Source: Promethearchaeota archaeon
Lineage (GTDB): Archaea; Asgardarchaeota; Lokiarchaeia; Sigyniarchaeales; SOKP01
Direction: 5' to 3'
Assembly (NCBI GenBank): GCA_019894715.1
Contig: JAGXOA010000204.1
Span: 51,179-115,178 of the forward strand
DNA: 64,000 bases
Position 1 is the first letter of the stretch. The number at the start of each line of letters is the position of its first letter. Shown piece after piece: positions 2,083 through 60,041 of the stretch. The translations under genes and the position numbers were made by a program. The notes beneath the pieces were generated by a model. It saw only the letters and a program-made list of their open reading frames with translations, did not search any database and had not been told where the DNA came from.

Positions 2083-3393
2083 GTGATTTTTATGGGTTTT
2101 CGAGAACATATAAAAAAATTAGACGAAGAAGGAATTCTTCGAAAAGTTGATATTGAAGTATCTAAATATTTGGAAATTTCTGGAATTTTAAAAGAAGTTG
2201 AACCTACTCCAGTAGTTTTTAATAAAATAACTGATAATAATTTTCGATTAATTGGTAATTTATTCTGTACAAAACAATCAATTGCATCTTACCTTGGAGT
2301 AACTCCCGCAGACTTAATACTAATGCTAACAAAAGCTATTGATAATCATTCTGAGCCCGAAACAATAAATAATGCACCATGTCAGGAAATTATTGAGACA
2401 AATGTAGATTTGGACAAACTACCTATTTTAATTCATTGTGAAAAAGATGGAGGTCCATATATTAGTTCTGGTGTTGTTGTCACCCGAGATCCTGAGTATG
2501 GACAAAATTTAGACTTTCATCGAGCAATGCAATTTTCAAAAAATCAATTTGCAACTAGAGTCGTAAGAGGACGTCATTTTCAAAAATTTTTAGAAAGAAA
2601 TGGAGAATTAGATGTAGCATTTTGTATTGGTAATACACCTAATGTTCTTATTGCTGCAGCAACATCTGTTGATATTGGTGTTGATGAACTAAGAATTGCA
2701 AATGCTCTAGAACCAATCCAAATTACTAAGGCTAAAACAGTTGATCTATTGGTTCCTGCTGACAGTGAATTTATTTTAGAAGGTCGTGTGTATTTAGAAG
2801 AAAAACATGCAGAAGGTCCTTTTGTTGATTTAACAGAGACATATGATATGATAAGAGAAGAACCTGTATTTGAAGTAAAAGCAATAACATATAAAAAGGA
2901 CGCTATATGGCAGGCTCTTCTTCCAGGAGCTCTTGAACATAAAATCCTAATGGGTATGCCAAGAGAACCTACTATATTCAGAAAAGTAAATGAAAAAGGA
3001 GTAAATTGTTTAGATGTAAATGTAAATCCCGGAGGGTGTTCATGGCTTCATGCAATAGTTCAGATAAATAAAAAATCTGATAATGATGGTAAATTGGCAA
3101 TTGAAGGTGCTTTTGAGGGTCATAGAAGCTGTAAACATGTTTACATTGTAGATAAAGATATAGATATCTATGATCCATTATCAGTAGAATGGGCCATGGC
3201 AACCCGATTTCAAGGCGATGTCGATATGATAGTCAAAGATAAAGAACCAGGTAGTAGTTTGGATCCAAGCGCAGAACCAGGAACAAAATTAACAACAAAA
3301 ATAGGATTTGATTTAACTGCTCCATTAGTTATCAAAGGTAAAAATTTTGGAAAAGCAGAATTTCCCAAAGTTGATATAAATAAATATTTTTAA
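2083..3393 (+). CDS. UbiD-family (prFMN-dependent) decarboxylase; candidate anhydromevalonate-phosphate decarboxylase
   Basis: 436 aa with UbiD-like sequence throughout (FREHIKKLDEEGILRKV..., GGPYISSGVVVTRDPEYGQNLDFHR, LRIANALEP, EGPFVDLTETYD). It directly precedes the aconitase-X pair and lies near UbiX and IPK. The true start is probably ATG 2092 (MGFREH...). Confidence 0.8.
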   Translation: MIFMGFREHIKKLDEEGILRKVDIEVSKYLEISGILKEVEPTPVVFNKITDNNFRLIGNLFCTKQSIASYLGVTPADLILMLTKAIDNHSEPETINNAPCQEIIETNVDLDKLPILIHCEKDGGPYISSGVVVTRDPEYGQNLDFHRAMQFSKNQFATRVVRGRHFQKFLERNGELDVAFCIGNTPNVLIAAATSVDIGVDELRIANALEPIQITKAKTVDLLVPADSEFILEGRVYLEEKHAEGPFVDLTETYDMIREEPVFEVKAITYKKDAIWQALLPGALEHKILMGMPREPTIFRKVNEKGVNCLDVNVNPGGCSWLHAIVQINKKSDNDGKLAIEGAFEGHRSCKHVYIVDKDIDIYDPLSVEWAMATRFQGDVDMIVKDKEPGSSLDPSAEPGTKLTTKIGFDLTAPLVIKGKNFGKAEFPKVDINKYF

Positions 3394-3410
3394 TCATTTA
3401 AGGTGATTTT

Positions 3411-4604
3411 ATGAAATTAACATTAGAAGAAAAAGATATGTTAGAAGGTAAGTATGGAAAGGCAACACAAAAATCAATGGAAATTTTAACCACTTTAGGT
3501 GATATATATGAAGCAGAAAAGATGATTGATATAAAAAGTGTACAAATATCTGGAGTTTCATATGCTAATCTTGGTGAAGCAGGATTAGATTTTTTAAGTA
3601 AAATGGCAATTGACGGAAAAGCTAGAATACTAACTACTTTAAATCCTGCTGGAATGGATCGAGATAACTGGCAAGCTTTAGGAATAGATGAAGAATTTGC
3701 AAAGAATCAAAATAGAGTTATTGACGCTTTCGCTAAAATGGAAGTTATTACAACTTGTACTTGTACGCCATATTTAATTGGTAATCTTCCACATTATGGC
3801 CAACATGTAGCATGGGCAGAGAGTAGTGCTGTATGTTTTTGTAATTCTGTGATTGGAGCGTATACAAACCGAGAAGGAGGACCTAGTGCTTTAGCATCCT
3901 CATTAACAGGAAAAACACCAAAATATGGATATCATTTAGAAGAAAATAGACATGGAGAAGTTTTATTTGAAATTAAGACATTAATTCAAGGAACAGATAA
4001 ATTTGGAGTCCTTGGTAAAGTAATTGGAGATAAATTAGGAGAATTAAAAAAGAAAATTCCCTATATTACAGGTATTCCTATCGCTAGTGTTGAAGAATTA
4101 AAATCATTTTGTGCTTCGGTGGCAACCTATGGGGGAACAGCTCTATTTCATATGGAAGGTATAACACCAGAAGCTTTAAAATATCCTAAACCTAAGAATA
4201 TTAAAATTGAAATTAATGAACAAGATATTAAAAAAGGGTTAGCAGAACTCATTGACGAAGATATTGAAGTAGATTTTGTTAGTATTGGATGCCCTCATGC
4301 CTCTATTGATGAAATAGCTCAAGTTGCAAAATTATTAAAAGGAAAAACTGTTAATAAAGAATTTTGGATAACAACTGGAAGGCCAACTAAAAAGATTGCT
4401 GATGAAGCAGGTTATACAAAGATAATAGAAAACGCAGGAGCAAAATTTGCCGCAGACACATGTTGTGTCGTTGCGCCTATAAAAGGAAGATTTAAAGGAA
4501 TTGTTGTAGATTCAGCAAAAGCTTGTTATTATGGTCGAGCCAAAAATAAATTTAAAGTTAAAATCGCTAATATTGAAGAATGTGTAAAGGAGGCGACACA
4601 ATAA
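3411..4604 (+). CDS. Aconitase X catalytic subunit (DUF521); candidate phosphomevalonate dehydratase large subunit
   Basis: 397 aa. MLEGKYGKATQKSMEILTTLGDIY..., VQISGVSY, TTLNPAGMD and conserved Cys (CTCTPY, CPHAS, CCVV) are typical of AcnX type IIb large subunits. GGTGA lies 4 nt before the ATG. Confidence 0.8.
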   Translation: MKLTLEEKDMLEGKYGKATQKSMEILTTLGDIYEAEKMIDIKSVQISGVSYANLGEAGLDFLSKMAIDGKARILTTLNPAGMDRDNWQALGIDEEFAKNQNRVIDAFAKMEVITTCTCTPYLIGNLPHYGQHVAWAESSAVCFCNSVIGAYTNREGGPSALASSLTGKTPKYGYHLEENRHGEVLFEIKTLIQGTDKFGVLGKVIGDKLGELKKKIPYITGIPIASVEELKSFCASVATYGGTALFHMEGITPEALKYPKPKNIKIEINEQDIKKGLAELIDEDIEVDFVSIGCPHASIDEIAQVAKLLKGKTVNKEFWITTGRPTKKIADEAGYTKIIENAGAKFAADTCCVVAPIKGRFKGIVVDSAKACYYGRAKNKFKVKIANIEECVKEATQ

Positions 4605-4997
4605 ATGAAGTTAGAAGGGAGAAAAATATATAAGGGGACTGCTAGTGGTGAAGCCATTGTTACTTCCCAAGGAATATCTTTCTTTGGAGGTGTCGATTCT
4701 GAGACAGGTGTAGTTGTAGAGAAAGATCATGAACTAGAAGGACAATCAATTTCTGGAAAAGTTTTAATATTTACTACAGGAAAAGGATCTACAGTAGGAT
4801 CCTATACAATATATCAAATGAAAAAAGGAAATACCGCACCTATAGCAATTGTTAATGAAACTATTGATACTGTAATTGCGGTTGGTTGTATTATTAGTGA
4901 AATTCCATGTGTTGATAAGATAGACATAAGTAAAATTAAAACAGGTCAAATAGTTACTGTAGATGGAACAAATGGAATAATAGAAGTTGAAGAATAA
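4605..4997 (+). CDS. Aconitase X swivel-domain subunit (DUF126); candidate phosphomevalonate dehydratase small subunit
   Basis: 130 aa. GEAIVTSQGISFFGGVDSETGVV...GQSISGKVLIFTTGKGSTVGSYTIYQM is the DUF126 pattern. It starts one base after the stop of the large subunit, with AGGAGG upstream at 4588-4593. Confidence 0.75.
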   Translation: MKLEGRKIYKGTASGEAIVTSQGISFFGGVDSETGVVVEKDHELEGQSISGKVLIFTTGKGSTVGSYTIYQMKKGNTAPIAIVNETIDTVIAVGCIISEIPCVDKIDISKIKTGQIVTVDGTNGIIEVEE

Positions 4998-5221
4998 TAT
5001 CTTTTTATTTTTTATTTATTTATAGAAATTTCTAAAATCTAATGATTTATGATGTTAAATCTACTTTAACAAAATTACGTTTCTGATTATTTATAATTTT
5101 TCAACTAAGGAGGAGTAAGAATTAAAAAGAAATGAAAATTTATCTAATAATATAAATAAACATACTAAATATGTAAAAAACACCTAATTATAGTATAATA
5201 TATTCAAAAATAAGTGATATT

Positions 5222-6188
5222 ATGGGAAGTGGAAAAGGTTTTGGAAAGACTATACTTTTTGGCGAAATTAAATTCTAAATTCAGAAATTAACGCAATCAC
5301 TTTGTAGTTTATGGTCTTCCTGCGATAGCTTCTGCCTTAGGTACATATACTACTACAGAAGTTAAAATAACAGAAGGTGAAGGTTGGGAAGTTATTGACG
5401 ATAGACCAGCCACACCAGGATATAAAAAACAGAAATTTGATGAAGCTCAACAATCAATAAAAAATGTCTTATCATTCCTAAATATAGATATAGAAAATCA
5501 AAAATTAATTTTATCCTTTGCTGGAGATCTATATGCTGCAAGCGGAGTAGGTGCTTCAGCAGCTCAGTGTACTTCTTTAGCTAGAGCTTTAAATGATGAA
5601 TTTATTTTAAATTTTAATGATGAAAAGATAAATGAAGCCGCTTATGAAGGAGAAAAAGCTTATCATGGAACACCTTCTGGTATAGACAATACAGCATCAA
5701 CATATGGAGGATTAATTTGGTTTGAAAAAAACCTTAGTGGTGGAAAGAATAAAATTGATAGGCTTGAATCAAAAGAGAAAATGTTTTTAGTTATTGGTAA
5801 TACAGGCTTAACAGCATCCACTATAGAAGTTGTTGGAGATGTACGTAAATTAAAGGATGAAAATCCTAAAAAATTTGAAAAAATATTCAATACCTATAAG
5901 GATATTGCGTTTAAAGCCAAAAATGCATTAATCGAAAGTGACGTAAAAACAGTAGGAAATTTAATGAATAAGAATCATGAATTACTTCAAGAAATTACAG
6001 TTTCTGGAGATATTAATGATATTATTGTTAAAATTGCTCTAGACAATGGAGCCTTAGGAGCTAAAATGACTGGAACAGGTCGTGGAGGTCTAGTGATTGC
6101 TTTAGCTTCTGATAAAAGTATTCAAGAAAAAATCTTTAATGCAATCCAAGAAAAGGGATATATGGCTTGGAAAACTACTATAGGATAG
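5222..6188 (+). pseudogene. mvk: Mevalonate kinase (GHMP kinase) with the frame interrupted by a 31-nt insert at 5267-5297
   Basis: ATG 5222 gives MGSGKGFGKTILFGE, then a stop at 5276. From 5298 another frame gives HFVVYGLPAIASAL...ASGVGASAAQCTSLARAL...KMTGTGRGGLVIAL to the stop at 6188. The ORF track reports only the last 135 aa (5781-6188). As read it is disrupted; see findings for the splice-like alternative. Confidence 0.75.
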
Positions 6189-6277: not shown

Positions 6278-8188
6278 TTGAATGAGACTGAAAAAATAAT
6301 ATTATTAAAATTAGGTGGAAGTCTACTAACTGAGAAAAATAAACCTTTTTCATTGAGAAAAGATGTTATTAAAAATGCTGTAAATCAAATTGGTAGAAGT
6401 AATAAAAAACTAATTATAATACATGGAGGGGGATCTTTTGGTCATCCTCTCGCAAAAAAATACAGTATTTCTAAAGGTATAAATAATTCAATAGAGAACC
6501 AAATAATGGGACTTTCAGAAACACATGATGCAATGAATAAGCTAAATTCATATGTAATCAGTGAATTTTTAGATCAATTAATTCCTGCTATATCAATTCA
6601 AACCTCGAGTATTTTTTTAAAAAAATCTCATGAGTATCTAATTAAGACAGTAGATATAATTGAAACTTACCTTAAATTAGGTCTTATCCCCATTTTATAT
6701 GGAGATATAGTGGTAGAGAAATCAGGGAATTTCTCAATTTTATCCGGAGATCAAATAATTTTAGAATTGTGTAATAATTTAAATAAATTTAAAGTAGAAA
6801 AAGTCATTTTCACAACAGAAACAGATGGTATATATATTAATGAAAATGATAGCACAGATAACACAAAATTGGCTACTGAAATACACTATAAAGATTTAGA
6901 TAATATTAATTTAGCTAATCTTGGTCAAAAAATAGATGTAACTGGAGGAATGAAGGGAAAAATAGATTCAATTAAGAAAATCTGTGATTTAAACATTCCT
7001 GTGCAAATAATCAATGGATTAAAACCAAATTACATTTTAAAAGCATTAAAATCAGAAAAAATCAAAGGAACTTATATTGGTATTGATAATAATGATAGAA
7101 TAACAAGAATTAGCAGAAGAAAAATCGAACATCTCAAAATTCCGATCGATTATAATGTTCAAAATAAATCTAATTATTTTGATGATATTGAATTGATATA
7201 TCATGCTTTTCCACAGATCAATTTTGATGATGTCAATCTCTCAACTAATTTTTTTGGGAAAATTATTTCAGCGCCTATATGTATAGCAGCTATAACAGGA
7301 GGTCATCCAGTAGCATATGAAATAAACAAAATTTTAGCGGATGCTGCTGAAAATCAAAATATTATAATGAGTGTGGGAAGTCAAAGAGCGGGATTAGTAG
7401 ATCCTGAACTATCAAAATCCTTTAGTATCGTGAGAGAAATAGCCCCAGATATACCAATTATTGGAAATTTAGGAATTGGTCAATTGAGTAGATCTAATTT
7501 TAATCTTGATGATTTTATAGATTGTATAAACATGATAAAAGCAGACGTTATGGCCGTTCATTTTAATGCTTTACATGAATTATTTCAAGAAAAAGGAGAT
7601 AAAACATATAATAATCTACTTGAAAACTTTAAAGAAGTAAAAAATGCAATAAAAATTCCAATTATTGCAAAAGAAGTAGGATCTGGATTTAATCAAGAAG
7701 TTGCACAGACTTTAGAAAATATAGGATTTGATGGGTTTGATGTGGGTGGTGCGGGAGGTACAAGCTTTGCCGCTATAGAATCCCATCGAAATAATAATCT
7801 AAATTCTATGTATACACGGAATCCTGCAGAATTATTTAGGGATTGGGGCATACCTACACCCGTTAGTATAAGTTATGTAAGAAAGGTTAGTCAAAAACCC
7901 ATAATATCCACAGGAGGTCTAAGAAATGGTATTGATATTGCTAAATCTATTGCTTTGGGTGCGAATATTGGAGGATTTGCCTATAAATTCCTATTAACTG
8001 CTTGGAAAGATTATAAGAATAATTCTAAATCTAATTCAATAAAAGAAATAATAACCTTAAAAAATGAACTGCAATCATGTTTGTGGTTAATGAATGCTTC
8101 TAATTCCAAAGAAATATTTAAGAAAAAGGACAAACTTATTATTTTAGGGAATTTATATAATTGGTTTAATCAAAATAAAACATTATAA
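6278..8188 (+). CDS. Fusion protein: isopentenyl phosphate kinase (N-terminal) + type-2 FMN-dependent IPP isomerase (C-terminal)
   Basis: 636 aa. The N-terminal ~260 aa is an amino-acid-kinase fold (ILLKLGGSLLTEK, IIHGGGSFGH, DVTGGM), as in IPK. The C-terminal ~350 aa carries IDI2 motifs (SAPICIAAITGG, MSVGSQRA, AKEVGSGF, GGAGGTSFAAIE, TGGLRNGIDIAKSIALGA). Confidence 0.8.
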   Translation: MNETEKIILLKLGGSLLTEKNKPFSLRKDVIKNAVNQIGRSNKKLIIIHGGGSFGHPLAKKYSISKGINNSIENQIMGLSETHDAMNKLNSYVISEFLDQLIPAISIQTSSIFLKKSHEYLIKTVDIIETYLKLGLIPILYGDIVVEKSGNFSILSGDQIILELCNNLNKFKVEKVIFTTETDGIYINENDSTDNTKLATEIHYKDLDNINLANLGQKIDVTGGMKGKIDSIKKICDLNIPVQIINGLKPNYILKALKSEKIKGTYIGIDNNDRITRISRRKIEHLKIPIDYNVQNKSNYFDDIELIYHAFPQINFDDVNLSTNFFGKIISAPICIAAITGGHPVAYEINKILADAAENQNIIMSVGSQRAGLVDPELSKSFSIVREIAPDIPIIGNLGIGQLSRSNFNLDDFIDCINMIKADVMAVHFNALHELFQEKGDKTYNNLLENFKEVKNAIKIPIIAKEVGSGFNQEVAQTLENIGFDGFDVGGAGGTSFAAIESHRNNNLNSMYTRNPAELFRDWGIPTPVSISYVRKVSQKPIISTGGLRNGIDIAKSIALGANIGGFAYKFLLTAWKDYKNNSKSNSIKEIITLKNELQSCLWLMNASNSKEIFKKKDKLIILGNLYNWFNQNKTL

Positions 8189-12230: not shown

Positions 12231-12899
12231 TTGGAATTGATCATAACTTTTGAAGGAATAATTAAAAGTTATATAAGATCATTTTCAGGAAACAGCGCTT
12301 TTTATGTGGTCGATAAGAACAATATATCTTATTACTGCTTTACAGCAAAAAATATAAGAATTGGAGATGTTTCAGATAATATAAAAATTATAGGAAAGAA
12401 ACTAAAAACAGATAAGGTTAAGGTTGAATTTGTAGAAAATTTAACTCAAAATAGAATATATAATTTTTCTAGAAAAAAGTCTATAATATATTCAATTTCC
12501 CTTGTGTTATTATTTTTTTTTATTATCACTTTCATAGGATCAATCATAATGTCACAAAAATTCAGCATTTATCTAGATGATCCTCTCAATGAAGAAGAAT
12601 ACCTACTTGCAATGATTTCAATTACAATGGTTATGTTATCAATAGTTGGAATTGTAACTGTAAGTCCCCTTCTCTACCTAACATTAAAATCAAAAAAACA
12701 GAATAAACTAATTAAAAATATTATTGAAGGTAAAAAATTAATCGATGATAAAGAAAATATAAAATTAATAAATATTGAACAAAATGATATAAAATTTGGA
12801 AACAATGTAAATTATTGTCCAAATTGCAGTAAAAAATTATCTCTAAATATCAAATATTGCCCTTATTGTGGAAATAAAGTATTATCTCACCAAAGATAA
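12231..12899 (+). CDS. Paralog 1: OB-fold-like N-domain + 2 TM helices + C-terminal zinc ribbon
   Basis: 222 aa. N-domain FEGIIKSYIRSFSGNSAFYVVDKNNISYYCFTAKNIRIGDVSDNIKIIGKK...VKVEFVENLTQNR. Two hydrophobic helices. C-terminal CPNCSKKLSLNIKYCPYCGNKV. TTG start directly after an in-frame TGA. Confidence 0.6.
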   Translation: MELIITFEGIIKSYIRSFSGNSAFYVVDKNNISYYCFTAKNIRIGDVSDNIKIIGKKLKTDKVKVEFVENLTQNRIYNFSRKKSIIYSISLVLLFFFIITFIGSIIMSQKFSIYLDDPLNEEEYLLAMISITMVMLSIVGIVTVSPLLYLTLKSKKQNKLIKNIIEGKKLIDDKENIKLINIEQNDIKFGNNVNYCPNCSKKLSLNIKYCPYCGNKVLSHQR

Positions 12900-13065
12900 A
12901 AATGATTTTAAAACATCATAGCTTTTTATTAATTCTTCAACACACAAATTTATTCCTATTGTTGTCAAATAACTGGTTTTAATTATTTGAAAGATATATG
13001 GTTTTATCAAAAAGAATAAATACTTAGTTATTTTATAGATAAATATTATAAATCCAAAAAAAAAA

Positions 13066-13767
13066 GTGATTAAATTAATTGTCAAAATAGAGGGTACTAT
13101 CAAAAATTACACTAAATCCTATTCGGGGAATACTGCATTTATCATTATTGATAAAAACAACCATTCACACTATTGCTATTCAACAAATTATTCAAGAATA
13201 GGAGATGCTTCGGATAATGTAATAGTAATTGGGGTAAGAAATAAATATGGGGACAAGATTAGAGTAGAATATGCAGAAAATCTAACAAAAAACCGTAGAT
13301 ATATAAAAAGAAGAAAATCAAACACCTTATACACAATATCAATTTTATTTGTTCTAATATCGATTTTAATAATGGTGGTCTCAACTTTTGTGTTAATTGA
13401 TAGTGATATAAGTGATCCAAGTAATCAAGAACAAATTCTAAAATTTGTAATCGGTATTATGGGCTTAGTAGGCACTTTAGTAAGTTTGATTCCATTACTT
13501 CCTATTATATATTACCAAAAAAAAACGCTTAATTTACAACGACATATATATAGTCTATTAGAGAAAGAAGGTAAAAAAGTAACTGTTGATGACTATATCC
13601 AATCAAAGAAAATAAACCCAAATATTAACGCTCAAGACTTAAATGTTAATGATTTCATTCCTTCAAAAGATTTAGAAAACAGACCCAATGCCAAATTCTG
13701 TCCGACGTGTGGACAAAATTTAATGCCTAATATAAAATTTTGTTCTGCATGTGGAACAAAAAGTTAA
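13066..13767 (+). CDS. Paralog 2: OB-fold-like N-domain + 2 TM helices + C-terminal zinc ribbon
   Basis: 233 aa. IEGTIKNYTKSYSGNTAFIIIDKNNHSHYCYSTNYSRIGDASDNVIVIGVRN...IRVEYAENLTKNR, two TM helices, then CPTCGQNLMPNIKFCSACGTK. It aligns by eye with 12231-12899. Confidence 0.6.
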   Translation: MIKLIVKIEGTIKNYTKSYSGNTAFIIIDKNNHSHYCYSTNYSRIGDASDNVIVIGVRNKYGDKIRVEYAENLTKNRRYIKRRKSNTLYTISILFVLISILIMVVSTFVLIDSDISDPSNQEQILKFVIGIMGLVGTLVSLIPLLPIIYYQKKTLNLQRHIYSLLEKEGKKVTVDDYIQSKKINPNINAQDLNVNDFIPSKDLENRPNAKFCPTCGQNLMPNIKFCSACGTKS

Positions 13768-13842
13768 AATTTTTTTTTATTTTATTATTCTATTATAAAA
13801 TTAAAAAAAAGAATAAATATTTAATTATTTTTTTTTTCTAAA

Positions 13843-14295
13843 ATGTTAACAAGAAAGGTGATTAGAATATTATTAAATGTTTGTGGTACAATCAAAATTT
13901 TTCCTAAAAATTATTCCGGAAATATAGCTTTTGAGGTAAAGGATAAGGATAATTATCTCCATTATTGTTTTTTGACAAAAAGAAAATATATAGGAGATAT
14001 TTCAGATGAAGTTAATATTATTGGAATGAGTACAAGAGGTAAAAAGATCAGGGTTATTTTTTTGGAAAATATTACGAAAGGACAAGTATTATACATGTCA
14101 AGGAGTACAAATAAAAAATTAATAGAATTTATCGAAATGTATAGACAACTTGATGATCAAGGAAATTTACTCAATATTCAAGAATCTCCCGAAGATAATA
14201 CTGAAAAAGGTCAAATTCAAAATTTTTGTGGAGAATGTGGTTCAAAATTAACGACAGAGATGAAATTTTGCTCTTATTGTGGCGATAAAATCTAA
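13843..14295 (+). CDS. Paralog 3: OB-fold-like N-domain + zinc ribbon, no TM helices
   Basis: 150 aa. CGTIKIFPKNYSGNIAFEVKDKDNYLHYCFLTKRKYIGDISDEVNIIGMSTRGKKIRVIFLENITKGQ, then CGECGSKLTTEMKFCSYCGDK. By analogy with paralog 2 the real start may be GTG 13858. Confidence 0.6.
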   Translation: MLTRKVIRILLNVCGTIKIFPKNYSGNIAFEVKDKDNYLHYCFLTKRKYIGDISDEVNIIGMSTRGKKIRVIFLENITKGQVLYMSRSTNKKLIEFIEMYRQLDDQGNLLNIQESPEDNTEKGQIQNFCGECGSKLTTEMKFCSYCGDKI

Positions 14296-17432: not shown

Positions 17433-18365
17433 TTAGGACTTATTTGCAAAATTATTAATAAAATCTTCAAGAATATTATGAATAAGTTCATCCAGCTTAA
17501 TTTCATTAAAACTCTCAGAGAGAACTACAAGATAAGTTAGATTTGATCTAAGAAATTTTAATCTAGAAATTTTGACAATTCTTATTTTATCATTTGATTT
17601 GAATAAATGGCTCTCATTATATAAATATGAATCCAGTTTATTTTCTTCCCATAATCGATAAAAGATAACAAAAGAATCATAGATGAGATTTATTTTATTT
17701 TTTTGAGATTTTGACTGGGTAATGACTTTATTTTGGTCATCAATTACCAAACAAAGTACATTTGAATAATCTTTAATTTGTTTTTCTAAAATTTTTTTAA
17801 TTTTAGAGGTTTTCTCTGAAAAACTACTAAGAATTTCAGAGAAAGTGTTATGAATACTATAAATAAATTCTTGCTTGATACTTGTAAAATATATATCTGG
17901 TTTAATTTTTAGATTAATCAAATTTTGAATCTGATCTGTCAGTAAACTAAGATTTTCTTGAAGTAATTGGGGATTAAGATCAATTTTATTATAGATTAGA
18001 ATCAATTTGCTTTTACTATTTATTTTCATTATAATTTTATAAATATTTTCTATTTCTTCAATAATTTCTTGTGATATCTCTCGTATTGATTCATAATCAA
18101 ACATATAGATTACAATATTAGCTCTCTCAAAAGCTTTTATTTGTTTTTCCCCCTCCTTTAAGAAACTATTAATTTCCTGACCTGAAATATCAAAAATACT
18201 TAAATTAATATCTAACCAATTGTAATCAGTAGTTTCTATTCCACAAGTTGGTTCTAATGATTCTTTTAATAATAATTTTGGATTTGAATTCTCAAATATT
18301 ATTTTTTTTAGGCTTGTTTTTCCCACACCAGCTCTACCAATAAAAAGAATTTTATTTATTATGAT
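17433..18365 (-). CDS. Rag/Gtr1-like small GTPase with C-terminal roadblock-like domain; 5' end extended beyond the ORF-track start
   Basis: G1 GRAGVGKT (its G-R-A-G codons at 18327-18338 lie upstream of the GTG the track used), G3 FDISGQ, G4 YNKIDL. Overall it resembles RagA/Gtr1 (KILFIGRAGVGKTSLKKIIF..., VIYMFD). The C-terminal ~130 aa has an alpha-beta-beta-alpha-beta-beta-alpha pattern. The frame is closed by TGA at 18369-18371, leaving only ATC/ATA/ATT as possible starts. Confidence 0.7.
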   Translation of the reverse strand: MIINKILFIGRAGVGKTSLKKIIFENSNPKLLLKESLEPTCGIETTDYNWLDINLSIFDISGQEINSFLKEGEKQIKAFERANIVIYMFDYESIREISQEIIEEIENIYKIIMKINSKSKLILIYNKIDLNPQLLQENLSLLTDQIQNLINLKIKPDIYFTSIKQEFIYSIHNTFSEILSSFSEKTSKIKKILEKQIKDYSNVLCLVIDDQNKVITQSKSQKNKINLIYDSFVIFYRLWEENKLDSYLYNESHLFKSNDKIRIVKISRLKFLRSNLTYLVVLSESFNEIKLDELIHNILEDFINNFANKS

Positions 18366-18590: not shown

Positions 18591-19814
18591 GTGTTTCAAT
18601 TGTTTGAAATTATAGAGCCTATAATATATTATAGATCGTCTGAGCATATGAAAGAAATTGCAGATAATTCAATACAATTAATTATAACTTCCCCTCCTTA
18701 TGGAAATATAAAAGATTACGGTATCAAGGAACAAATAGGATTTTCTCAAAACTTTAAGCAGTATTTTACACGACTTAACCTGGTATGGAATGAATGTTTT
18801 AGAATATTAGAACCTAAATGTCGTATGGTTATTAATATAGGAGATCAATATTTGAGAGCATCGGAACATGGACGTTACAGGATAATTTCAATAGCTAGTA
18901 AAATAATAGAAGATTGCACTAAAATGGGATTTGATTTTTTAGGAGATATAATTTGGCAAAAAATAAGTACAACTAATACTACAGGGGGATGTTCTCTTAT
19001 GGGATCAATATACTATCCAAGAAATGGATTATTAACTTTTGATTATGAACATATTTTAATTTTTAAAAAATATGAAGGAAAACCTAAAAAAGTCGAAAGA
19101 GATCGAAAGGAATTTTCAAAAATATCTCTTAGCGAATGGAAGAAATGGTATGTTGGACATTGGAAATTTCCTGGTGAAGTACAAAAAGAACATATGGCTA
19201 TGTTTCCTGAAGAATTACCATATAGAATCATTCGAATGTTTTCATTTATTGGAGATAAAGTTTTAGATCCTTTTACAGGTTCAGGAACTACTTTAAAAGT
19301 TGCAAAATCTTTATTTAGAAAAGGAATTGGATATGAGATAAACAAAGAGTTTAAAAAAACTATAATAGATAAAATAAACGAAGCTAAGACAGGATTTTTT
19401 AAAGATTATCAATATTTCTTGTATGTACTGTATAAGCAATCAACAGAAGAAGATTTCTCTATTAAATTTCAAGATCAAAAAAGAAAAGGTATTGTTATTA
19501 TAGAAAATAATGAAAATAAAAAAATCATATTAGATTATCTCCTTGTTTCCAATGGCAAAAATACCTCTCTTGAAAGAGAAATCTTAATAAAATTAGAGGA
19601 AAATACGGTACTTAATTATTTGATTAGAGAAGATGATGAATTCGTAAATACAAAATTCATAATTATTATAAAACACTCAAATAAAGAGATTAAAGAAATT
19701 GAAAAAATTTTAAAGGAAATTGCTCAAAGATATAATACTAAAAATAAATTTGATATAATACAATTTAATGATATTATGAAAAAGGATTTTCAATTTTCAA
19801 GATTATTTTCATAA
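18591..19814 (+). CDS. DNA methyltransferase, beta-class N4/N6 (SPPY type, probably N4-cytosine) with ~150-aa uncharacterised C-terminal extension
   Basis: Motif IV IITSPPYGN lies near the N-terminus and motif I VLDPFTGSGTTLKVA lies later, which is the beta-class order. No neighbouring endonuclease was recognised. Confidence 0.8.
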   Translation: MFQLFEIIEPIIYYRSSEHMKEIADNSIQLIITSPPYGNIKDYGIKEQIGFSQNFKQYFTRLNLVWNECFRILEPKCRMVINIGDQYLRASEHGRYRIISIASKIIEDCTKMGFDFLGDIIWQKISTTNTTGGCSLMGSIYYPRNGLLTFDYEHILIFKKYEGKPKKVERDRKEFSKISLSEWKKWYVGHWKFPGEVQKEHMAMFPEELPYRIIRMFSFIGDKVLDPFTGSGTTLKVAKSLFRKGIGYEINKEFKKTIIDKINEAKTGFFKDYQYFLYVLYKQSTEEDFSIKFQDQKRKGIVIIENNENKKIILDYLLVSNGKNTSLEREILIKLEENTVLNYLIREDDEFVNTKFIIIIKHSNKEIKEIEKILKEIAQRYNTKNKFDIIQFNDIMKKDFQFSRLFS

Positions 19815-21664: not shown

Positions 21665-22624
21665 TTATTTTCTTCCTAATACTTTACTTGCCATATATGC
21701 AAATGCATCATGTACGTTTTCTCCAGTCCTTGCAGAAGTAAGAATATAATTATATCCAAATTTGTTAGAGATTTCCTTTATATCTTCTTCTGTAACGACA
21801 ATTTTATCTGTTAAATCGCTTTTATTTCCAACTATCATCATGGGTATATTATCTTCTATAGAATCTAAAATATCATCATGCCATTTTTCTACATTTAATA
21901 ATGTCCTCTCTCTAGTCCGATCTATCACAATTATCGCACAGTGAGCACCATTATAAAAATTCTTTCTGTAATTACAGAAATCTGCCTGACCAGCAACATC
22001 CCAAATAATAAAATTCACTATTGTTTTATCAGAGAACTTGTATGTATGTTTAGTTATATCTACTCCAATTGTAGCGGTATAACTTTCTTTGAATTTCTTT
22101 TTAACAAACCGTCTTATTAATGAAGATTTTCCTACTTGAAAATCGCCTATAAGGACTAATTTTGTTGAAAATTCACCTTCTGGGAATTTTCCACTACGAG
22201 TTTGAGAAAGTACTTTGATAATTTCAGGTATCTCTAAGCTAACATTTTCTTTTCTTTCTAATATTAATTCTATTTTAACAGCAATATGTTCAGAATAAAC
22301 CTTTAATTTAACATCTGGGGTTTCTGGCTGAACTAAAGTAGTCAATATTGAATTTTGGCCTTGTGAGCAAAATACAAATTTTTTATCTCCTGTTGTAGTA
22401 ATATTAAAAAATCCACTTTCAGTATCAAATTCTCTCTTTATTCTTTCAATATAGCTATCTATCATTGAAGATATTGCACCCATAACCGCATCAGAATCTA
22501 CGTCAGGCTCTTCTTTATGTTCTGAGGCGATAATTAAGCCATTTTTATCAACAATAGCAACAGCAATTATTCCTTCTACATGATCAATATAATTTTTTAA
22601 TAGTACATTTAAAGCATTTTCCAT
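21665..22624 (-). CDS. Fusion: N-terminal Roadblock/LC7 (MglB-like) domain + C-terminal Rab/Ras-like small GTPase
   Basis: N-terminus: HVEGIIAVAIVDKNGLIIASEH...DAVMGAISSMIDS...ILTTLV (Robl/LC7 pattern). C-terminus: G1 GDFQVGKSSL, G2 T in YTATIGVD, G3 WDVAGQ, G4 GNKSDL, G5 TSARTG. Confidence 0.8.
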   Translation of the reverse strand: MENALNVLLKNYIDHVEGIIAVAIVDKNGLIIASEHKEEPDVDSDAVMGAISSMIDSYIERIKREFDTESGFFNITTTGDKKFVFCSQGQNSILTTLVQPETPDVKLKVYSEHIAVKIELILERKENVSLEIPEIIKVLSQTRSGKFPEGEFSTKLVLIGDFQVGKSSLIRRFVKKKFKESYTATIGVDITKHTYKFSDKTIVNFIIWDVAGQADFCNYRKNFYNGAHCAIIVIDRTRERTLLNVEKWHDDILDSIEDNIPMMIVGNKSDLTDKIVVTEEDIKEISNKFGYNYILTSARTGENVHDAFAYMASKVLGRK

Positions 22625-22735: not shown

Positions 22736-23656
22736 TTATGCATTTTTTATTGAGATCTTATAGATCTCTTGTGTTATTTTTTTATATATTTTCTCTAATA
22801 CAATGGCAAATTCTTTGGGATTTTCTAAATTATCAGGTAAACCTAAATTCTCTAATGTCTCTATGTATTTTCCAGGTTTTCTAAAATGAAAAGTTATTTT
22901 ATCTTGATTTTCAATAAAATTCTTCTTATTTTTAAATTCTTGGATAGATATTTTAGGAACATTAAAGGAATAAAAATCTTCAACAATTTTCTCTTTTTCT
23001 AATTTTAAAGCTATACTTTTTTCAGAAATATCATGATACTTTCCAATCTTTAGGTCTTTAAGTAATTCTTTTTTCTTTTTCCCTCTAATTTTTAACAATA
23101 TTAATGGATCATAATCTAATACCTTAGATATATAAAGTATTGTCGCTGCAATATGTTTACAAGGAATTGCTTCATCAGGACAAGAACAAGAAGCATTTAA
23201 AACTTCAGATACTTCTGGAAATAATGAATGATTATTTTTTTCGAAAATTTCAATAATTCCTTCTGTTAGTTTTCCTTGTAATAATATCATTAAATTTAAT
23301 AAATTACTTCCAAGTTCTATTATAATTTTTTGCCAATCATCTTGAGGAATTATATTAAATGATACTTTAACTCTGTATGGTGTTGGTGCTGTTCCTTGAA
23401 CTAATGCAAATATCTGTCCTTTCTTTATGATAAGATTATTGATTCTCTCTTCTTCTTTTGCATACTGAATTCCACGTCTCATTCTATAAGGGCGACCAAT
23501 TTTTAGAATAGAGTAAATCCAATTTTTCCCCCAGGAAGTCTTAGCATAATTAATAAGATCTTTTTTAATTTGATTTATTTCCGCTTGTTTTTCTTTTTTG
23601 TCTGTGGTAAACTCTTTATTCTTAGAGTTTTTATTATAGTTTTTTAAGTCTCGCAT
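22736..23656 (-). CDS. SWIM zinc-finger protein (SNF2-helicase-associated)
   Basis: 306 aa. CSCPDEAIPCKHIAATILYI is the CxCx(n)CxH SWIM motif. It lies immediately downstream of the SNF2 helicase on the same strand. Confidence 0.75.
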   Translation of the reverse strand: MRDLKNYNKNSKNKEFTTDKKEKQAEINQIKKDLINYAKTSWGKNWIYSILKIGRPYRMRRGIQYAKEEERINNLIIKKGQIFALVQGTAPTPYRVKVSFNIIPQDDWQKIIIELGSNLLNLMILLQGKLTEGIIEIFEKNNHSLFPEVSEVLNASCSCPDEAIPCKHIAATILYISKVLDYDPLILLKIRGKKKKELLKDLKIGKYHDISEKSIALKLEKEKIVEDFYSFNVPKISIQEFKNKKNFIENQDKITFHFRKPGKYIETLENLGLPDNLENPKEFAIVLEKIYKKITQEIYKISIKNA

Positions 23657-23680
23657 ATTTCTATTTTCACATATATTTTT

Positions 23681-26600
23681 TTATAAATTCAAAGATATCA
23701 ATTCTTTTATTTTATCATTATCTAATTGGGAGAGCCATGATTCTCCACTTGTAATAATTGAATTTGCTAATTCTTTTTTCTCTTCTATAAGTTCATCAAT
23801 CTTTTCTTCTATAGTTCCAATAGTAATAAATTTATAGACATTGACATTTTTTGTTTGGCCAATTCTATAAGCTCTATCTGTTGCTTGTTTCTCTACTGCA
23901 GGATTCCACCATCTATCATAATGAAATATAGTTGTGGCTTTTGTAAGATTTAATCCTGTTCCACCTGCCTTAAGAGAAAGAATTAATATAGGAGAACTAT
24001 TAACATCATCAGATTGAAATTCTTCTATTATTTTCTTTCTATTTTCAGCAGAAATACTTCCATGAAAATAAAGAATAGGAAATTGATATTTGAAAGTAAG
24101 GATCTGTTCTAGTAAATCCCCCATCTGAGTGAATTGAGTAAAAATTATACTTTTTTCATTATTATTGATGACATTATCTAACTTTTCTAATAACCTTTCT
24201 AATTTATGAGATTGAGAAATAATTTCTTCAAATTCCTTTTTGGAAAGATTTGTTTTAAGAGATTTTTTTAAATATTGGTATGGATGATTACAAATTTGTT
24301 TAAATTTGGTTAATAATCCTAATATAAATATATTTTTATTCTTTTTATTTGAAGCATTATCATTAATTTGAGCAAGAGCTTCTTTGACTATGCTTTTATA
24401 TAAAAATAATTGAATTTTGCTCAGGTCTGTATAAATTTTCATCTCGTTTTTTTCAGGGAGATCTTGTATAATAGATTTATCTATTTTTAATCTTCTTAAA
24501 ATAAAAGGGGCAATAATTTTTTTTAATTTTGAAATAGCATTTTTATCAGAATATCTTTCGATTGGAATAATTATATCTTCTTGAAATTCTTTTCTATCAC
24601 CTAATAATCCAGGATTTAAAAATTCAAAAAGAGTCCACAGCTCAATAAGACGATTTTCTATTGGAGTACCACTTAAGCATACTTTATATTGGCTTTGTAA
24701 TTGATAAATAGCTTTAGTCTGTTGAGTACTATAATTTTTCATATTTTGAGATTCATCTACAATTATTCCGGTAAAGGGGATCGTTTTTAATAGATTGATA
24801 TCATTCCTTATCGTTGCAAAGGAAGTTAATATTATACTATGAGGAAATAAGTTTTTAGTAAATTCTAATATATTTTTTACTCGATTAGTACCATGATGAA
24901 GTATAACATCCAGATTTGGTGCAAATTTGTTTAATTCATGTTTCCAATTATATAATACTGAAGTAGGACAAATAATCAATGTACTACCAAAATCTTTAGG
25001 GTAGTTTTCTTTGAAATATAATAGCAATGCAATTATTTGTATTGTTTTCCCTAAACCCATATCATCTGCTAAACATAATCCAAAATTTAATTCACTCATA
25101 TTAACTAGCCAAGTTAGACCATCTTTTTGATAAGATCTTAGTTTTCCTTGGAAAGATTTAGGAGGATTTATTTTAGTGAAATTTTTTAAAGATTTAATTC
25201 TATTGACTATTTCATCAAATTGACCTTCAATTAGGACATCATAATTAGTTCCTCCTTCTTCTAATTGTGCTTCTCCAGATAAACCCAATTTAAGAGCATC
25301 CACATAATTAATATTACCCTCTAATTCATTAAACCCTCCAGAAGAGTTAGAAGGATTAAGAATCTTTTTTAAGTTATTGATATCTTGTTGTTCTACTAAG
25401 ATCCAATCTCCTTTCCAATTAATTAATGGCTGGTTTGAATCAATAATATCCTTTATCTCATCTTTTTCTAAAGTATCATTCCCAAGTTCAATCTGCCATT
25501 TATAATTTAAAATGTCATCAATTTGAAATATAGGATTTAAAACATTGGAATTACTTATTTTCTCTTTTTCTTTCTGTGTGGTAATAATAATTTTAGTAGA
25601 TAATTTTTGTCTACCACCTATATTAAAAACATCTGGTAAAATTATGTGATATCCACTTTGAATCAATAACTCTTTTGGAAAACTAAGAAAATTCATTACT
25701 TCATTAGAATTAACTAAAATATCCTCAGGAAATGAATTATTAAGTGCTTTCTTTATTGGAGGATATATTACTGTTGCCAGATAGAGACTTTTTAAAATAG
25801 ATTCAATAAGTTCTTCTTTATTTTGGATTCGGTCTAAAACTTTAGATGCTATTTTTTTACCAATCCAAAAATCTTTTAATGAAATTAAATCCATTGTATC
25901 TTCTGTAGAAATATAAAACTTTAAAACCCAATCTTCCTTGTTTTTTTGAGGATATTCTAATTTTATTGTGAGCCTTATTCCATATTTAGCTGTTGATATT
26001 TGAATAGAGTTAGTCCAGTTATTTATGAGTTTAGGAATAATTGACTCGTGTAATTTTACAATATTGAATGAATTTTGCCTTTTAATTAAAGATTTTAAGA
26101 ATTTATAGTCCCAACTTAAATTTGATTCTCTATTTTTTTCTTTTATTATATCTAGATTGTAAAACTCCTCAAATGTTTGAAATTTTATAGATTTTAATAT
26201 ATATCTGATGAGTAAATCTCCAACATTTTTAAAATAATGAGAAAAAATATAAGAATTATGCCATAATTCATCTGTATATTGATTTTCTCTGTTTTTGCTT
26301 GGTTTTTTTAAATTTTTAAAACTTGCAGGTAAATTAAATGCTTGCCATGAACTATTACTCAATATATAATTAAATCTTTCATTATCAAGCTCTGATTTAA
26401 GAATTATTTGCCATTTGCTTCTAAATTTATCATCTCCTTCCTTTTCAAAATGAGGAATAAAATTACCTCTATTTAAAATCTCAAAGACTAATTTAGTTAA
26501 TAATGCCCATGTTTTAACAGAATCAGTAAAATGGACAAATAATTTGTTTCTATTATTACCTTCAAATATCTCTAATTTATTTAGGTATCTTGCTGCAGGT

Positions 26601-26890
26601 ATTAAGGGTAAAACTTTTGCTGTAATCTCTCGAATTTCGAAAAAATCTCCAACTAAAAATGCTAAATTTATTTTACATGATACCAGAGTATCAATAGGAA
26701 TTTCAGGAAAAGATTGAGAAATTTCCATTGCTAAATTCCCTTCTAATGAGGAATTGTTTATCCATAAGATAAAAAAGCTTGATTTCTTAGGGATGTTTAT
26801 TTTCTTTGAAAGAATGGTGAATTTACTTGCCTCACTATTCCAATATTCTGAAGGAATATACGTTAGTTGTAAATCTGGCTTTAATTTCAT
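23681..26890 (-). CDS. SNF2-family helicase/translocase
   Basis: 1069 aa. Motifs LADDMGLGKTIQ (I), DESQNMKN (II), LSGTPIENR, LKAGGTGLNLT and QATDRAYRIGQ (VI), plus a long N-terminal SNF2-associated region. Confidence 0.9.
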   Translation of the reverse strand: MKLKPDLQLTYIPSEYWNSEASKFTILSKKINIPKKSSFFILWINNSSLEGNLAMEISQSFPEIPIDTLVSCKINLAFLVGDFFEIREITAKVLPLIPAARYLNKLEIFEGNNRNKLFVHFTDSVKTWALLTKLVFEILNRGNFIPHFEKEGDDKFRSKWQIILKSELDNERFNYILSNSSWQAFNLPASFKNLKKPSKNRENQYTDELWHNSYIFSHYFKNVGDLLIRYILKSIKFQTFEEFYNLDIIKEKNRESNLSWDYKFLKSLIKRQNSFNIVKLHESIIPKLINNWTNSIQISTAKYGIRLTIKLEYPQKNKEDWVLKFYISTEDTMDLISLKDFWIGKKIASKVLDRIQNKEELIESILKSLYLATVIYPPIKKALNNSFPEDILVNSNEVMNFLSFPKELLIQSGYHIILPDVFNIGGRQKLSTKIIITTQKEKEKISNSNVLNPIFQIDDILNYKWQIELGNDTLEKDEIKDIIDSNQPLINWKGDWILVEQQDINNLKKILNPSNSSGGFNELEGNINYVDALKLGLSGEAQLEEGGTNYDVLIEGQFDEIVNRIKSLKNFTKINPPKSFQGKLRSYQKDGLTWLVNMSELNFGLCLADDMGLGKTIQIIALLLYFKENYPKDFGSTLIICPTSVLYNWKHELNKFAPNLDVILHHGTNRVKNILEFTKNLFPHSIILTSFATIRNDINLLKTIPFTGIIVDESQNMKNYSTQQTKAIYQLQSQYKVCLSGTPIENRLIELWTLFEFLNPGLLGDRKEFQEDIIIPIERYSDKNAISKLKKIIAPFILRRLKIDKSIIQDLPEKNEMKIYTDLSKIQLFLYKSIVKEALAQINDNASNKKNKNIFILGLLTKFKQICNHPYQYLKKSLKTNLSKKEFEEIISQSHKLERLLEKLDNVINNNEKSIIFTQFTQMGDLLEQILTFKYQFPILYFHGSISAENRKKIIEEFQSDDVNSSPILILSLKAGGTGLNLTKATTIFHYDRWWNPAVEKQATDRAYRIGQTKNVNVYKFITIGTIEEKIDELIEEKKELANSIITSGESWLSQLDNDKIKELISLNL

Positions 26891-26961
26891 CTAAATATAG
26901 GACTCCATAAAATTATGTACTCTAGTTATTAGATTTTATAGATTTAAAAAAATTTTCGAAT

Positions 26962-27534
26962 CTATAATTGACCTTTTGTAGAGGGTATTTCATCAGAAAC
27001 AATCATTTTAGCTTGATGAATTGCTTTTGCTAATGCTTTAAAGCCAGCTTCTATCTTATGATGTTGATCTTGACCATAAATAATATGAAGATGCAAATTC
27101 ATTTTAGCATTTTCTGCGAAAGAATTAAAAAAATGCAATATGTCTTCTATTGCAATATCCTCAATATTACATTCTATTAATTTTAAATCTAAGATTAATG
27201 ATTTTCGTCCACAAAAGTCAATAACACAACGCGCTAACGATTCATCCATTGGAATTAAAGCGGATCCGTATCGATTAATCCCTTTTTTACTACCTAAAGC
27301 TTTAAATATACATTGTCCAAGCGAGATTCCAATGTCTTCTACTATATGGTGAGTTAGATCACCAGAAGCTTTTATTTCTAAATCTATTCCAGAGTGTTTT
27401 GATAAAAGGATAAGCATATGATCCAAGAACTTTACACCTGTATCAATATCATTCTTTCCTGAACCATCTAAATTTAATTTTATAATAATATTTGTTTCTG
27501 ATGTTTTTCTTTTTATTTCGGCAGTTCTATCCAA
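26962..27534 (-). CDS. hisB: Imidazoleglycerol-phosphate dehydratase
   Basis: 190 aa. RKTSETNI, DTGVKFLDHML, HHIVEDIGISLGQ, DESLARCVIDFCGR and HHKIEAGFKALAKA are IGPD motifs. TTG start. Confidence 0.9.
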   Translation of the reverse strand: MDRTAEIKRKTSETNIIIKLNLDGSGKNDIDTGVKFLDHMLILLSKHSGIDLEIKASGDLTHHIVEDIGISLGQCIFKALGSKKGINRYGSALIPMDESLARCVIDFCGRKSLILDLKLIECNIEDIAIEDILHFFNSFAENAKMNLHLHIIYGQDQHHKIEAGFKALAKAIHQAKMIVSDEIPSTKGQL

Positions 27535-27605
27535 TTTTTAATCACTTGTTAAGATCTTCTTATTAGAAATAGTATAATTAATTCTAGTTAAAGCTTTATT
27601 TTAAA

Positions 27606-59480: not shown

Positions 59481-60041
59481 TTAAATTGCTGTCCACAATT
59501 GAGCTCTACCTTTCTTCCCAGTACGTTTTATTTTACGATCACTTTCTAAATCTGAGATTAATTTCCATATTTCAGAATTAGTGAGCTTAAAATATTTTCT
59601 CAATTCTGGTGTAGACATTTCAGTATCATTTAGAATATTTGTTATTAATCTTTTGACTTCTTCAACTGTATCAACATCAGAACTTTTAGAAACACCTTCG
59701 ACATCTTCATCATCATCAGATTCCATCTCAACCATTATACGAGAAGCAATTTTATTTAGATTTTTTATATTTGTTTCGATTCCTCTTGGTTTCATAAAAA
59801 GACAACATAATTCTAAATCTTTTGGAAAAGCAACAACATAAAAATCATCATATAAAATAGCTCTTGGTTTTTTTCCTGCATTACCTCCACGAAATGATAA
59901 ATAAAAATTAACAGCAAAATCATCTAAATTAACAAAATCATTTATTTCATCATATTTTTTCTTCCATTTTAGAAAAGGTCCATTAATTAGATCAAAACCG
60001 ACTAAAGCTACAGAAAATAATTCTTTTTCATTAAAATTCAT
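59481..60041 (-). CDS. Longin-like N-domain + acidic linker + C-terminal winged-helix protein, coupled to the Arf-like GTPase
   Basis: 186 aa. ELFSVALVGFDLINGPFLKWKKKY...FAVNFYLSF...RAILYDDFYVVAFPKDLELCCLFMKP...NLNKIASRIMVEM has a beta-beta-alpha-beta-beta-beta-alpha pattern like uDENN/longin. Then comes DDDEDVEG, then TPELRKYFKLTNSEIWKLISDLESDRKIKRTGKKGRAQLWTAI (wHTH-like). Its ATG overlaps the GTPase stop as ATGA (60038-60041). Confidence 0.55.
   Translation of the reverse strand: MNFNEKELFSVALVGFDLINGPFLKWKKKYDEINDFVNLDDFAVNFYLSFRGGNAGKKPRAILYDDFYVVAFPKDLELCCLFMKPRGIETNIKNLNKIASRIMVEMESDDDEDVEGVSKSSDVDTVEEVKRLITNILNDTEMSTPELRKYFKLTNSEIWKLISDLESDRKIKRTGKKGRAQLWTAI

Follow-up and report, generated by a model that had tools for sequence, protein, structure and literature searches.

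The mevalonate kinase (MVK) gene on contig JAGXOA010000204.1 of a Promethearchaeota archaeon, studied here in a stretch of 64 kb (the window), is interrupted by a short insert. The insert, positions 5267-5297, is most probably an intron of the bulge-helix-bulge (BHB) type in the pre-mRNA for this enzyme, the host being a Lokiarchaeota/Promethearchaeota (Asgard) archaeon. This reading of the DNA is supported because both junctions lie at BHB cut positions, the insert is conserved, its hairpin covaries, and gene and intron both appear to be under selection.

In the mechanism we propose, GCG of the Gly14-Glu15 codons in the transcript would pair with CGC near the 3' end of the intron, forming a central helix on which the 9-bp hairpin of the intron would stack. 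AA/A would be the 5' bulge, AU/C would be unpaired at the 3' junction (the slash marks the cut), and a distal exon-exon helix would close the structure (Table 1). The RNA-splicing endonuclease EndA would cut after the second nucleotide of each bulge, and an RNA ligase would join ...GGC GAA to CAC UUU..., giving the mRNA for the full 311-aa enzyme. In archaea the RNA ligase for exon joining is RtcB. Only an 18-residue peptide would be made from the unspliced mRNA. We infer splicing itself, EndA and RtcB as its agents, and the BHB conformer as the fold that is used.

Interrupted gene and predicted fold

Exon 1 is read from ATG 5222 as MGSGKGFGKTILFGE, followed by IKF and by TAA at 5276-5278. Exon 2 (HFVVYGLPAIASAL...) lies in a different frame, which ends with the stop codon 6186-6188, is closed upstream by TAA 5289-5291 and has its earliest ATG, GTG or TTG at 5781. 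A preliminary description of the window had given this split, with GTGA in front of the exon 1 start codon, and translation confirmed all of it. The same description claimed that deletion of exactly 5267-5297 restores the kinase and that neither junction can be moved by a base; both statements hold. Removal of the 31 nt gives a 311-aa protein which matches the TIGR00549 mevalonate kinase family with 230.8 bits (cut-off 163) over residues 8 to 284, and which, aligned with 2hfs, a mevalonate kinase of solved structure, shows no gap across the junction (GFGKTILFGEHFVVYG versus GYGKVILFGEHFVVHG). Neither junction can be slid along the sequence, since the bases concerned are unequal (A5267 and C5298; A5266 and T5297). 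The intron begins ATTAAATTC and ends CGCAAT, and the expected exon-exon joint reads ...TTTGGCGAA/CACTTTGTA....

In the canonical BHB motif of tRNA, exon nucleotides p-5 to p-2 form a 4-bp helix, to which the first two anticodon nucleotides belong, and p-1, p and intron nucleotide 1 form the bulge (PMC4090602). The junctions of the MVK insert, set independently by protein alignment, both fall between bulge nucleotides 2 and 3, and this was found in 9/9 alleles of the insert (see below). When both strands of the window were scanned for 31-nt intervals, an equally good layout was obtained at 35 of 127,780 positions, a frequency of 2.7e-4. The BHB-like geometry at the junctions is not due to chance. 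ViennaRNA folding of the region gave the minimum-free-energy structure that had been drawn by hand in the preliminary description, with GCG 5262-5264 paired to CGC 5292-5294, AAA 5265-5267 bulged and a hairpin of 5268-5276 with 5283-5291. The splicing-endonuclease reading attached to that drawing gains support from the match of both cut positions to the canonical layout. Fold energy alone is unremarkable (z = -1.54), as 15/200 shuffled sequences fold at least equally well.

Three pairs of the central helix, G5262-C5294, C5263-G5293 and G5264-C5292, are invariant. At the fourth position G5261 faces A5295; this position is G.A in 7/10 aligned sequences and G.U in 3/10 (2/9 intron alleles). The ensemble probability of the central helix is 0.05-0.84 in single sequences, and its exon strand is fixed by coding and thus outside covariation testing. 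The inner helix h' is present as the 9-bp hairpin, whose first two pairs (U-A, U-A) are constant where present. Beside the 3' bulge, where a strict hBHBh' motif needs an outer exon-exon helix h and a relaxed HBh' motif has none, no such helix was found: beyond the lone pair U5260-A5299 come four mismatches, U.U or U.C, before a C-G pair. The element is therefore a relaxed (HBh'-like) motif at best. The loop is closed in place of the outer helix by the distal 9-bp exon-exon helix, with a probability of about 1 in 9/10 sequences.

Three weaknesses of the fold had been pointed out beforehand. The shortness of the central helix is partly answered by G.U at the fourth position in three sequences, and G.A in the rest leaves it weak. 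The objection that TTAA/TTAA pairing is cheap is partly met, as these bases belong to a 9-bp hairpin in which compensatory changes occur. An outer helix of 1-2 bp is now backed by the conserved distal helix and is itself still degenerate.

A covariance model of the intron core scored the window intron at 67.8 bits (E 7.5e-17). The model found no second copy in the window, where the best other match had 13.4 bits, and on the fetched loci it returned nothing besides the known mevalonate kinase sites. A generic scan of the window for BHB-like intervals that merge open reading frames (ORFs) gave thousands of trivial gene-end extensions and was dropped as unspecific.

Table 1. Positions of the intron, its host gene and other features of the window
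Feature	Position	Strand	Basis or remark
UbiD-family decarboxylase and large and small subunits of aconitase X (AcnX)	2083..4997	+	NCBIfam and Pfam matches
Shine-Dalgarno-like GTGA	5214..5217	+	4 nt 5' of the exon 1 start codon; read from sequence
Exon 1 of mevalonate kinase, 15 codons, MGSGKGFGKTILFGE	5222..5266	+	translation
Distal exon-exon helix, 5' strand AAGACUAUA (codons K9, T10, I11)	5246..5254	+	predicted to pair with 5310-5318
Central helix H, 5' strand GGCG (Gly14 codon GGC and G of Glu15)	5261..5264	+	fold, alignment
5' bulge AA/A, candidate 5' splice site 5266/5267	5265..5267	+	unpaired in minimum-free-energy fold
Putative intron, 31 nt, ATTAAATTCTAAATTCAGAAATTAACGCAAT	5267..5297	+	removal restores family consensus; covariance-model match
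Inner hairpin h', 5268-5276 with 5283-5291, one A.A mismatch, loop 5277-5282	5268..5291	+	fold, covariation
In-frame TAA	5276..5278	+	ends translation of unspliced mRNA after 18 residues
Central helix H, 3' strand CGCA, intronic	5292..5295	+	CGC invariant in 9 alleles
3' splice-site triplet AU/C, candidate 3' splice site 5297/5298	5296..5298	+	unpaired in fold
Exon 2 of mevalonate kinase, residues 16-311 and stop	5298..6188	+	translation, family match
Distal exon-exon helix, 3' strand UAUGGUCUU (codons Y20, G21, L22)	5310..5318	+	predicted to pair with 5246-5254
Isopentenyl phosphate kinase fused to type 2 isopentenyl diphosphate (IPP) isomerase	6278..8188	+	NF040647 residues 8-267, TIGR02151 residues 280-616
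Three consecutive ORFs of 222, 233 and 150 aa, each ending in a zinc-ribbon domain	12231..14295	+	no other recognisable domain
Gtr1/RagA-like GTPase	17433..18326	-	eukaryote-like small GTPase
N6/N4 methylase, separate	18591..19814		
Roadblock/LC7 domain fused to Ras-family GTPase	21665..22624	-	eukaryote-like small GTPase
SWIM zinc-finger protein, 1,069-aa SNF2-family helicase with DUF3670, histidine-pathway IGPD, Eco57I/TaqI-type DNA methylase	22736..29480	-	block
Arf-like GTPase	60038..60586	-	eukaryote-like small GTPase

Alleles, selection and host

Further alleles were harvested by scans of public genomes and metagenomes and by look-ups of mis-called proteins. This comparison with orthologous MVK loci, which the preliminary description had proposed, detected an insert in 16 more contigs, from assemblies and samples other than those of the window, always at the same place, Glu15/His16; with the allele of the window this makes 9 distinct alleles. 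The insert-bearing contigs come from ENA, NCBI, JGI and Logan, and their samples and assemblers differ. Among the genome bins with the intron are GCA_016926735.1, GCA_029856295.1, CAZGJX01 and CAZBEU01. An insert identical to that of the window is carried by two contigs, from ERZ27271186 (ENA; 2 mismatches in 7,194 nt) and a Logan assembly of SRR14373431; across the alleles the insert diverges in step with its host gene.

The length is 31 nt in 8/9 alleles and 30 nt in the remaining one (L043). All alleles retain the start codon and GKTILFGE in exon 1, and in 8/10 intron-bearing genes the start codon is preceded by GGAGTGA, AGTGA or GGTGA (none for L009 and L041 in the 14 nt inspected). Within the intron all alleles have a stop in frame with exon 1, so that the unspliced message would give a peptide of 18-25 residues. 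The frame of exon 2 is also closed within the intron in 4/9 alleles (the window, L002, L037 and L043). No further frameshifts or stops were found in any of the 10 intron-bearing genes.

The 30-nt allele (JGI Ga0073582_101666, 1462-1491) has lost 1 nt in the 5' strand of the hairpin, which brings both exons into one frame and shifts the hairpin by 1 nt relative to the central helix. In-frame TAA and TAG are retained in this intron, and purifying selection on the gene persists. Since the exons share a frame and yet the stops are kept, the reading frame of the insert appears to be irrelevant, as expected if the insert is removed before translation.

The ratio of nonsynonymous to synonymous substitution rates (dN/dS) was 0.10-0.16 in the first four intron-bearing genes compared, at a dS of 0.9-1.5, which is near saturation. 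The window offers no start codon for residues 16-176 (161 codons), and still these show a dN/dS of 0.04-0.17; where both genes of a pair carry the intron, it is 0.08 (L002/L037) and 0.10 (L038/L040). For residues 177-311 the ratio is 0.08-0.38. Judged by these ratios, the mevalonate kinase gene is functional and under strong purifying selection.

In an alignment of 10 sequences, 90% of the cells of the whole tested structure can pair, compared with 38-43% when the partner strand is slid. Compensatory double changes occur at four hairpin pairs (U-A to A-U at two, U-A to C-G at the other two), and the covariation score was reached by 0/500 shuffles. The non-coding CGC that would pair with GCG of Gly-Glu is invariant in the 9 alleles, as is the intronic AACGC. 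Compared with 4-fold degenerate sites of the same genes, the intron changed at 5/31 positions against 0.52, 1/31 against 0.20, and 0/31 against 0.38. Taken together, these patterns indicate that the intron structure is under selection.

Codon usage around the junction was compared between 10 intron-bearing genes and 7 intronless relatives. All 10 intron-bearing genes have AAG for Lys9 (intronless: AAA 6, AAG 1), CTN for Leu12 (intronless: TTA 7/7), GGC for Gly14 (intronless: GGT 3, GGA 3, GGC 1) and GGT for Gly21 (intronless: GGT 2, GGA 2, GGG 2, and AAC for Asn 1). These four codons build the predicted central helix and distal exon-exon helix. Of the 9 pairs of the distal helix, 8-9 form where the gene carries the intron and 5-7 where it does not. 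As the codons were picked after the structure had been seen, the comparison is supportive and no independent test. Over a broad stretch of 26 codons around the junction, excess synonymous conservation was not significant (9/24 against 45/164, p = 0.34).

Intron-bearing loci account for 11/181 cluster representatives from two homology searches, and the remainder have an uninterrupted GKTILFGEH. In a neighbour-joining tree the intron-bearing genes stand at no fewer than four, that is at least 4, separate places, and their nearest neighbours include intronless genes. One intronless protein (P0026) is 96% identical to that of the intron-bearing locus L038. Between L038 and its twin without the intron, L044, identity is 96% over nucleotides 84-912 and only 77% over the first 84, and along the first 300 nt it rises from 0.72 to 1.0. 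By this comparison, presence or absence of the intron coincides with a 5' end of the gene that has apparently been replaced by recombination. The intron may be either ancestral and repeatedly erased or a cassette that spreads.

Public protein collections contain mis-called mevalonate kinases from intron-bearing loci (P0003, P0006, P0017, P0019, P0121, P0122, P0125, P0147, P0148, P0160 and P0180; in the window, 5781-6188). Some have false N-termini, MVRLYFLARFISNFGNKRNHF..., MAKFISQLRNKRYHF... and MERPYFLAKF..., which are the intron read in the frame of exon 2. Others are truncated to 135, 283 or 293 aa, and at least one, P0006, is named 'mevalonate kinase' in NCBI. When the false N-terminal peptides were used in a profile search for more alleles, the matches were confined to short pieces of ordinary mevalonate kinases. 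The intronless MVK of L003 (JBHLQY010000022, labelled Thorarchaeota; 2960-2990) is without ATG, GTG or TTG after the stop of the upstream gene and reads GTG ACA TAA ACG GGA ACT. The same place reads TAA ATG GGA in L007, L008, L038, L040 and L043. The L003 gene could have an ACG start or coupled re-initiation, or a base error could be present.

In NCBI the nearest full-length homologues carry the name Lokiarchaeota archaeon or Promethearchaeota archaeon. Small GTPases of kinds typical of Asgard archaea are also encoded in the window (Gtr1/RagA-like, Roadblock-Ras and Arf-like). Asgard archaea are reported to possess an (alpha-beta)2 EndA with an L1 loop, and cleavage of non-canonical (relaxed) motifs has been ascribed to (alpha-beta)2 and epsilon2 EndA with such a loop (PMC5829648). 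The host thus fits relaxed-motif splicing, and we infer the EndA and ligase step from the literature on Asgard archaea. The sole tRNA of the window, Leu-CAG, is intronless. A scan of the fetched loci for local tRNA introns gave nothing usable; it returned one 94-nt tRNA-Thr(UGU) call in a distant lineage (L022, 1084-1177), the length of which would allow an intron.

Competing explanations

Several observations weigh against a BHB-type intron. The central helix has three Watson-Crick pairs and a G.A (G.U in 3/10), and the outer helix has one U-A pair followed by four U.U mismatches, which makes the motif non-canonical. RNAalifold prefers a rival pairing, GCGAAAU/AYUUUGU, with a single-sequence probability of 0-0.58 compared with 0.05-0.84 for the central helix. 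Conservation of the flanking codons and of the intron could partly come from shared descent of a recombining 5' cassette. Genes for EndA and RtcB were looked for among the window proteins and neither is in the 64-kb window. Eight spliced proteins were also sought by exact match among 15 billion proteins, a collection that derives mostly from DNA; none was present, a result which is uninformative either way.

The rival helix, GCGAAAU 5262-5268 with ACUUUGU 5299-5305 (AUUUUGU in other alleles), competes with the BHB fold in predicted ensembles. Together with the hairpin it would juxtapose the two junctions, and the insert could then be removed from the RNA by a nuclease and ligase other than the EndA system. 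The RNAalifold consensus uses this helix, its probability is 0.3-0.58 in several alleles, and the missing canonical outer helix leaves room for such a removal. We nevertheless regard it as unlikely, and we know of no nuclease or ligase of the kind needed. This model leaves unexplained why both junctions coincide exactly with BHB cut positions (chance 2.7e-4). The rival helix is ranked below the BHB fold because it consists almost wholly of coding positions, mostly dictated by the Gly-Glu and His-Phe-Val codons, and because the invariant intronic AACGC is not accounted for. The rival helix might act as an inhibitory or regulatory conformer, or it might simply result from the coding sequence.

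Full-length enzyme could also be made from unspliced mRNA if the ribosome bypassed the insert or changed frame over it, as in phage T4 gene 60 and the mitochondrial byp elements. The insert is a short hairpin of slightly flexible length (30 or 31 nt) with a stop codon soon after the break, which would suit such recoding. The features of the gene 60 bypass, applied to the insert, speak against it: the take-off codon GAA or GAG does not match the landing codons AAU, UAU, AAA or UAG, a hop from UUU to UUU would remove the conserved GEHF, and other codons stand between the presumed take-off codon and the stop. In the window, L002 and L037 no single frameshift could connect the exons, because the exon 1 frame closes at 5276 and the exon 2 frame opens only at 5292. 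Recoding is accordingly quite improbable. Internal initiation was rejected, since it would lose residues 1-176, which are under selection, and a model of a protein made in two pieces was rejected on sequence grounds.

The preliminary description had named a plain pseudogene and an assembly artefact as alternatives. A disrupted gene whose role is taken over by a mevalonate kinase encoded at another place in the genome would agree with the formally broken reading frame and with the presence in the same samples of an intronless MVK (P0001) that is 85% identical to the window protein. The latter is the orthologous locus of another organism and no second copy, because its gene order is the same and the neighbouring protein is 83% identical. 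Decay is moreover contradicted by a dN/dS of about 0.1 at saturated synonymous sites, also between insert-carrying pairs, by the start codon and motif kept in exon 1 of all alleles, and by an insert that in all 9 alleles occupies exactly the same place and measures 30-31 nt. The strength of this purifying selection leaves the pseudogene very improbable. For an assembly or sequencing artefact no supporting point was found; the same insert recurs in the independent ENA, NCBI, JGI and Logan contigs, with alleles that diverge along with the host gene, which brings the chance of an artefact close to nil.

Known introns and genomic surroundings

In the searchable literature, introns in archaeal coding sequences are confined to one gene, cbf5 in Crenarchaeota, to which one case in a Haloferax 5' untranslated region (UTR) is added. 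That literature, which omits most subscription-journal papers, yielded no description of an intron in mevalonate kinase or of BHB introns in Asgard mRNA. The cbf5 pre-mRNA intron of Crenarchaeota was reportedly described by Watanabe in 2002. We read the MVK intron as the same type of element as the cbf5-type mRNA introns, probably in a new gene and a new phylum. Relaxed motifs are frequent among cbf5 introns (Yokobori 2009, PMC2738675). Both are short introns in an archaeal coding sequence with a BHB-type motif that is often relaxed, both would be tied to a hetero-oligomeric EndA of broad specificity, and both show patchy gains and losses among relatives (PMC2738675). They differ in host gene and lineage, a pseudouridine synthase of Crenarchaeota as opposed to mevalonate kinase of Asgard archaea, and in that splicing of cbf5 was shown experimentally, whereas splicing of MVK is predicted. 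Unlike in cbf5, presence of the MVK intron varies even between genes 96% identical in their body and tracks the recombined 5' end.

The BHB introns of tRNA and rRNA (hBHBh', HBh') share with the MVK intron the 3-nt bulge, the helix of four positions, the 3-nt triplet, cuts after the second nucleotide and the internal h' (PMC4090602, PMC5829648). With 31 nt, the MVK intron is inside the 11-129 nt range of tRNA introns (PMC4090602). In contrast to those introns, its host RNA would be an mRNA, its outer helix has one bp and U.U mismatches, and the outermost position of its central helix is mostly G.A. An mRNA as substrate of the splicing endonuclease has a precedent in HVO_1309 of Haloferax volcanii, which has a BHB intron in the 5' UTR whose removal is apparently needed for efficient expression; there the intron lies in the untranslated leader, the reading frame is intact and the host is euryarchaeal (PMC7714728). 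The 2020 study which added this case gave cbf5 as the only additional BHB intron reported before (PMC7714728).

Two further systems resemble the MVK insert in part. Bypassing elements (T4 gene 60, yeast mitochondrial byps) are short non-coding inserts that contain a hairpin and allow one protein from an interrupted frame, but need matching take-off and landing codons, which the MVK insert does not have. In eukaryotes, HAC1 and XBP1 have a small stem-loop intron in a coding mRNA that is removed without the spliceosome by an endonuclease and a tRNA ligase, and the unspliced mRNA gives no active protein. RtcB acts in XBP1 splicing (PMC8718801). The differences are that Ire1 and not EndA makes the cuts, that the splice-site structure is another one, and that the system is a regulated stress switch.

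A second case in a coding sequence, if true, would mean that endonuclease-dependent mRNA splicing is no crenarchaeal oddity. The gene concerned encodes a central enzyme of the lipid pathway, in the archaeal group closest to eukaryotes. The nearly identical pair L038 and L044, with and without the intron, is a natural experiment on gain or loss and on recruitment of codons for splice-site structure. Mis-called, truncated MVKs could lead pathway reconstructions to score the enzyme wrongly as defective. The model is testable, since it predicts exactly the joined exons, the excised RNA of 31 nt and the sites of cleavage. A more far-reaching proposal, which we hold to be doubtful, is that the MVK intron is the tip of a wider Asgard class of mRNA introns spliced by EndA and RtcB and hidden by gene callers as truncated or read-through proteins. 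The MVK intron would then also gate full-length enzyme and isoprenoid-lipid synthesis on the tRNA-splicing machinery, and its 5' cassette may be spread or erased by recombination between co-occurring lineages.

The MVK gene lies in an archaeal mevalonate-pathway cluster that is otherwise complete, with the UbiD-family decarboxylase, both AcnX subunits, the kinase-isomerase fusion and UbiX. The order AcnX large subunit, AcnX small subunit, MVK recurs on every contig that reaches so far. Among the other window ORFs that were scanned against Pfam or NCBIfam there is no second mevalonate kinase, and the earlier claim that this is the only MVK in an otherwise intact pathway locus thus stands for the 64-kb window. 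The G+C content of the window is 26.4%.

The kinase-isomerase fusion is one 636-aa ORF in the window and an ORF of 631-637 aa in L033, L036 and L037. Isopentenyl phosphate kinase and IPP isomerase are separate genes in L040 (2180-3642), L043 (2396-3882) and L045, and the fusion may be specific to the subclade of the window. Among the remaining features of Table 1, the three zinc-ribbon ORFs may be tandem paralogues, and the block at 22736-29480 may form a restriction or defence neighbourhood together with the separate methylase.

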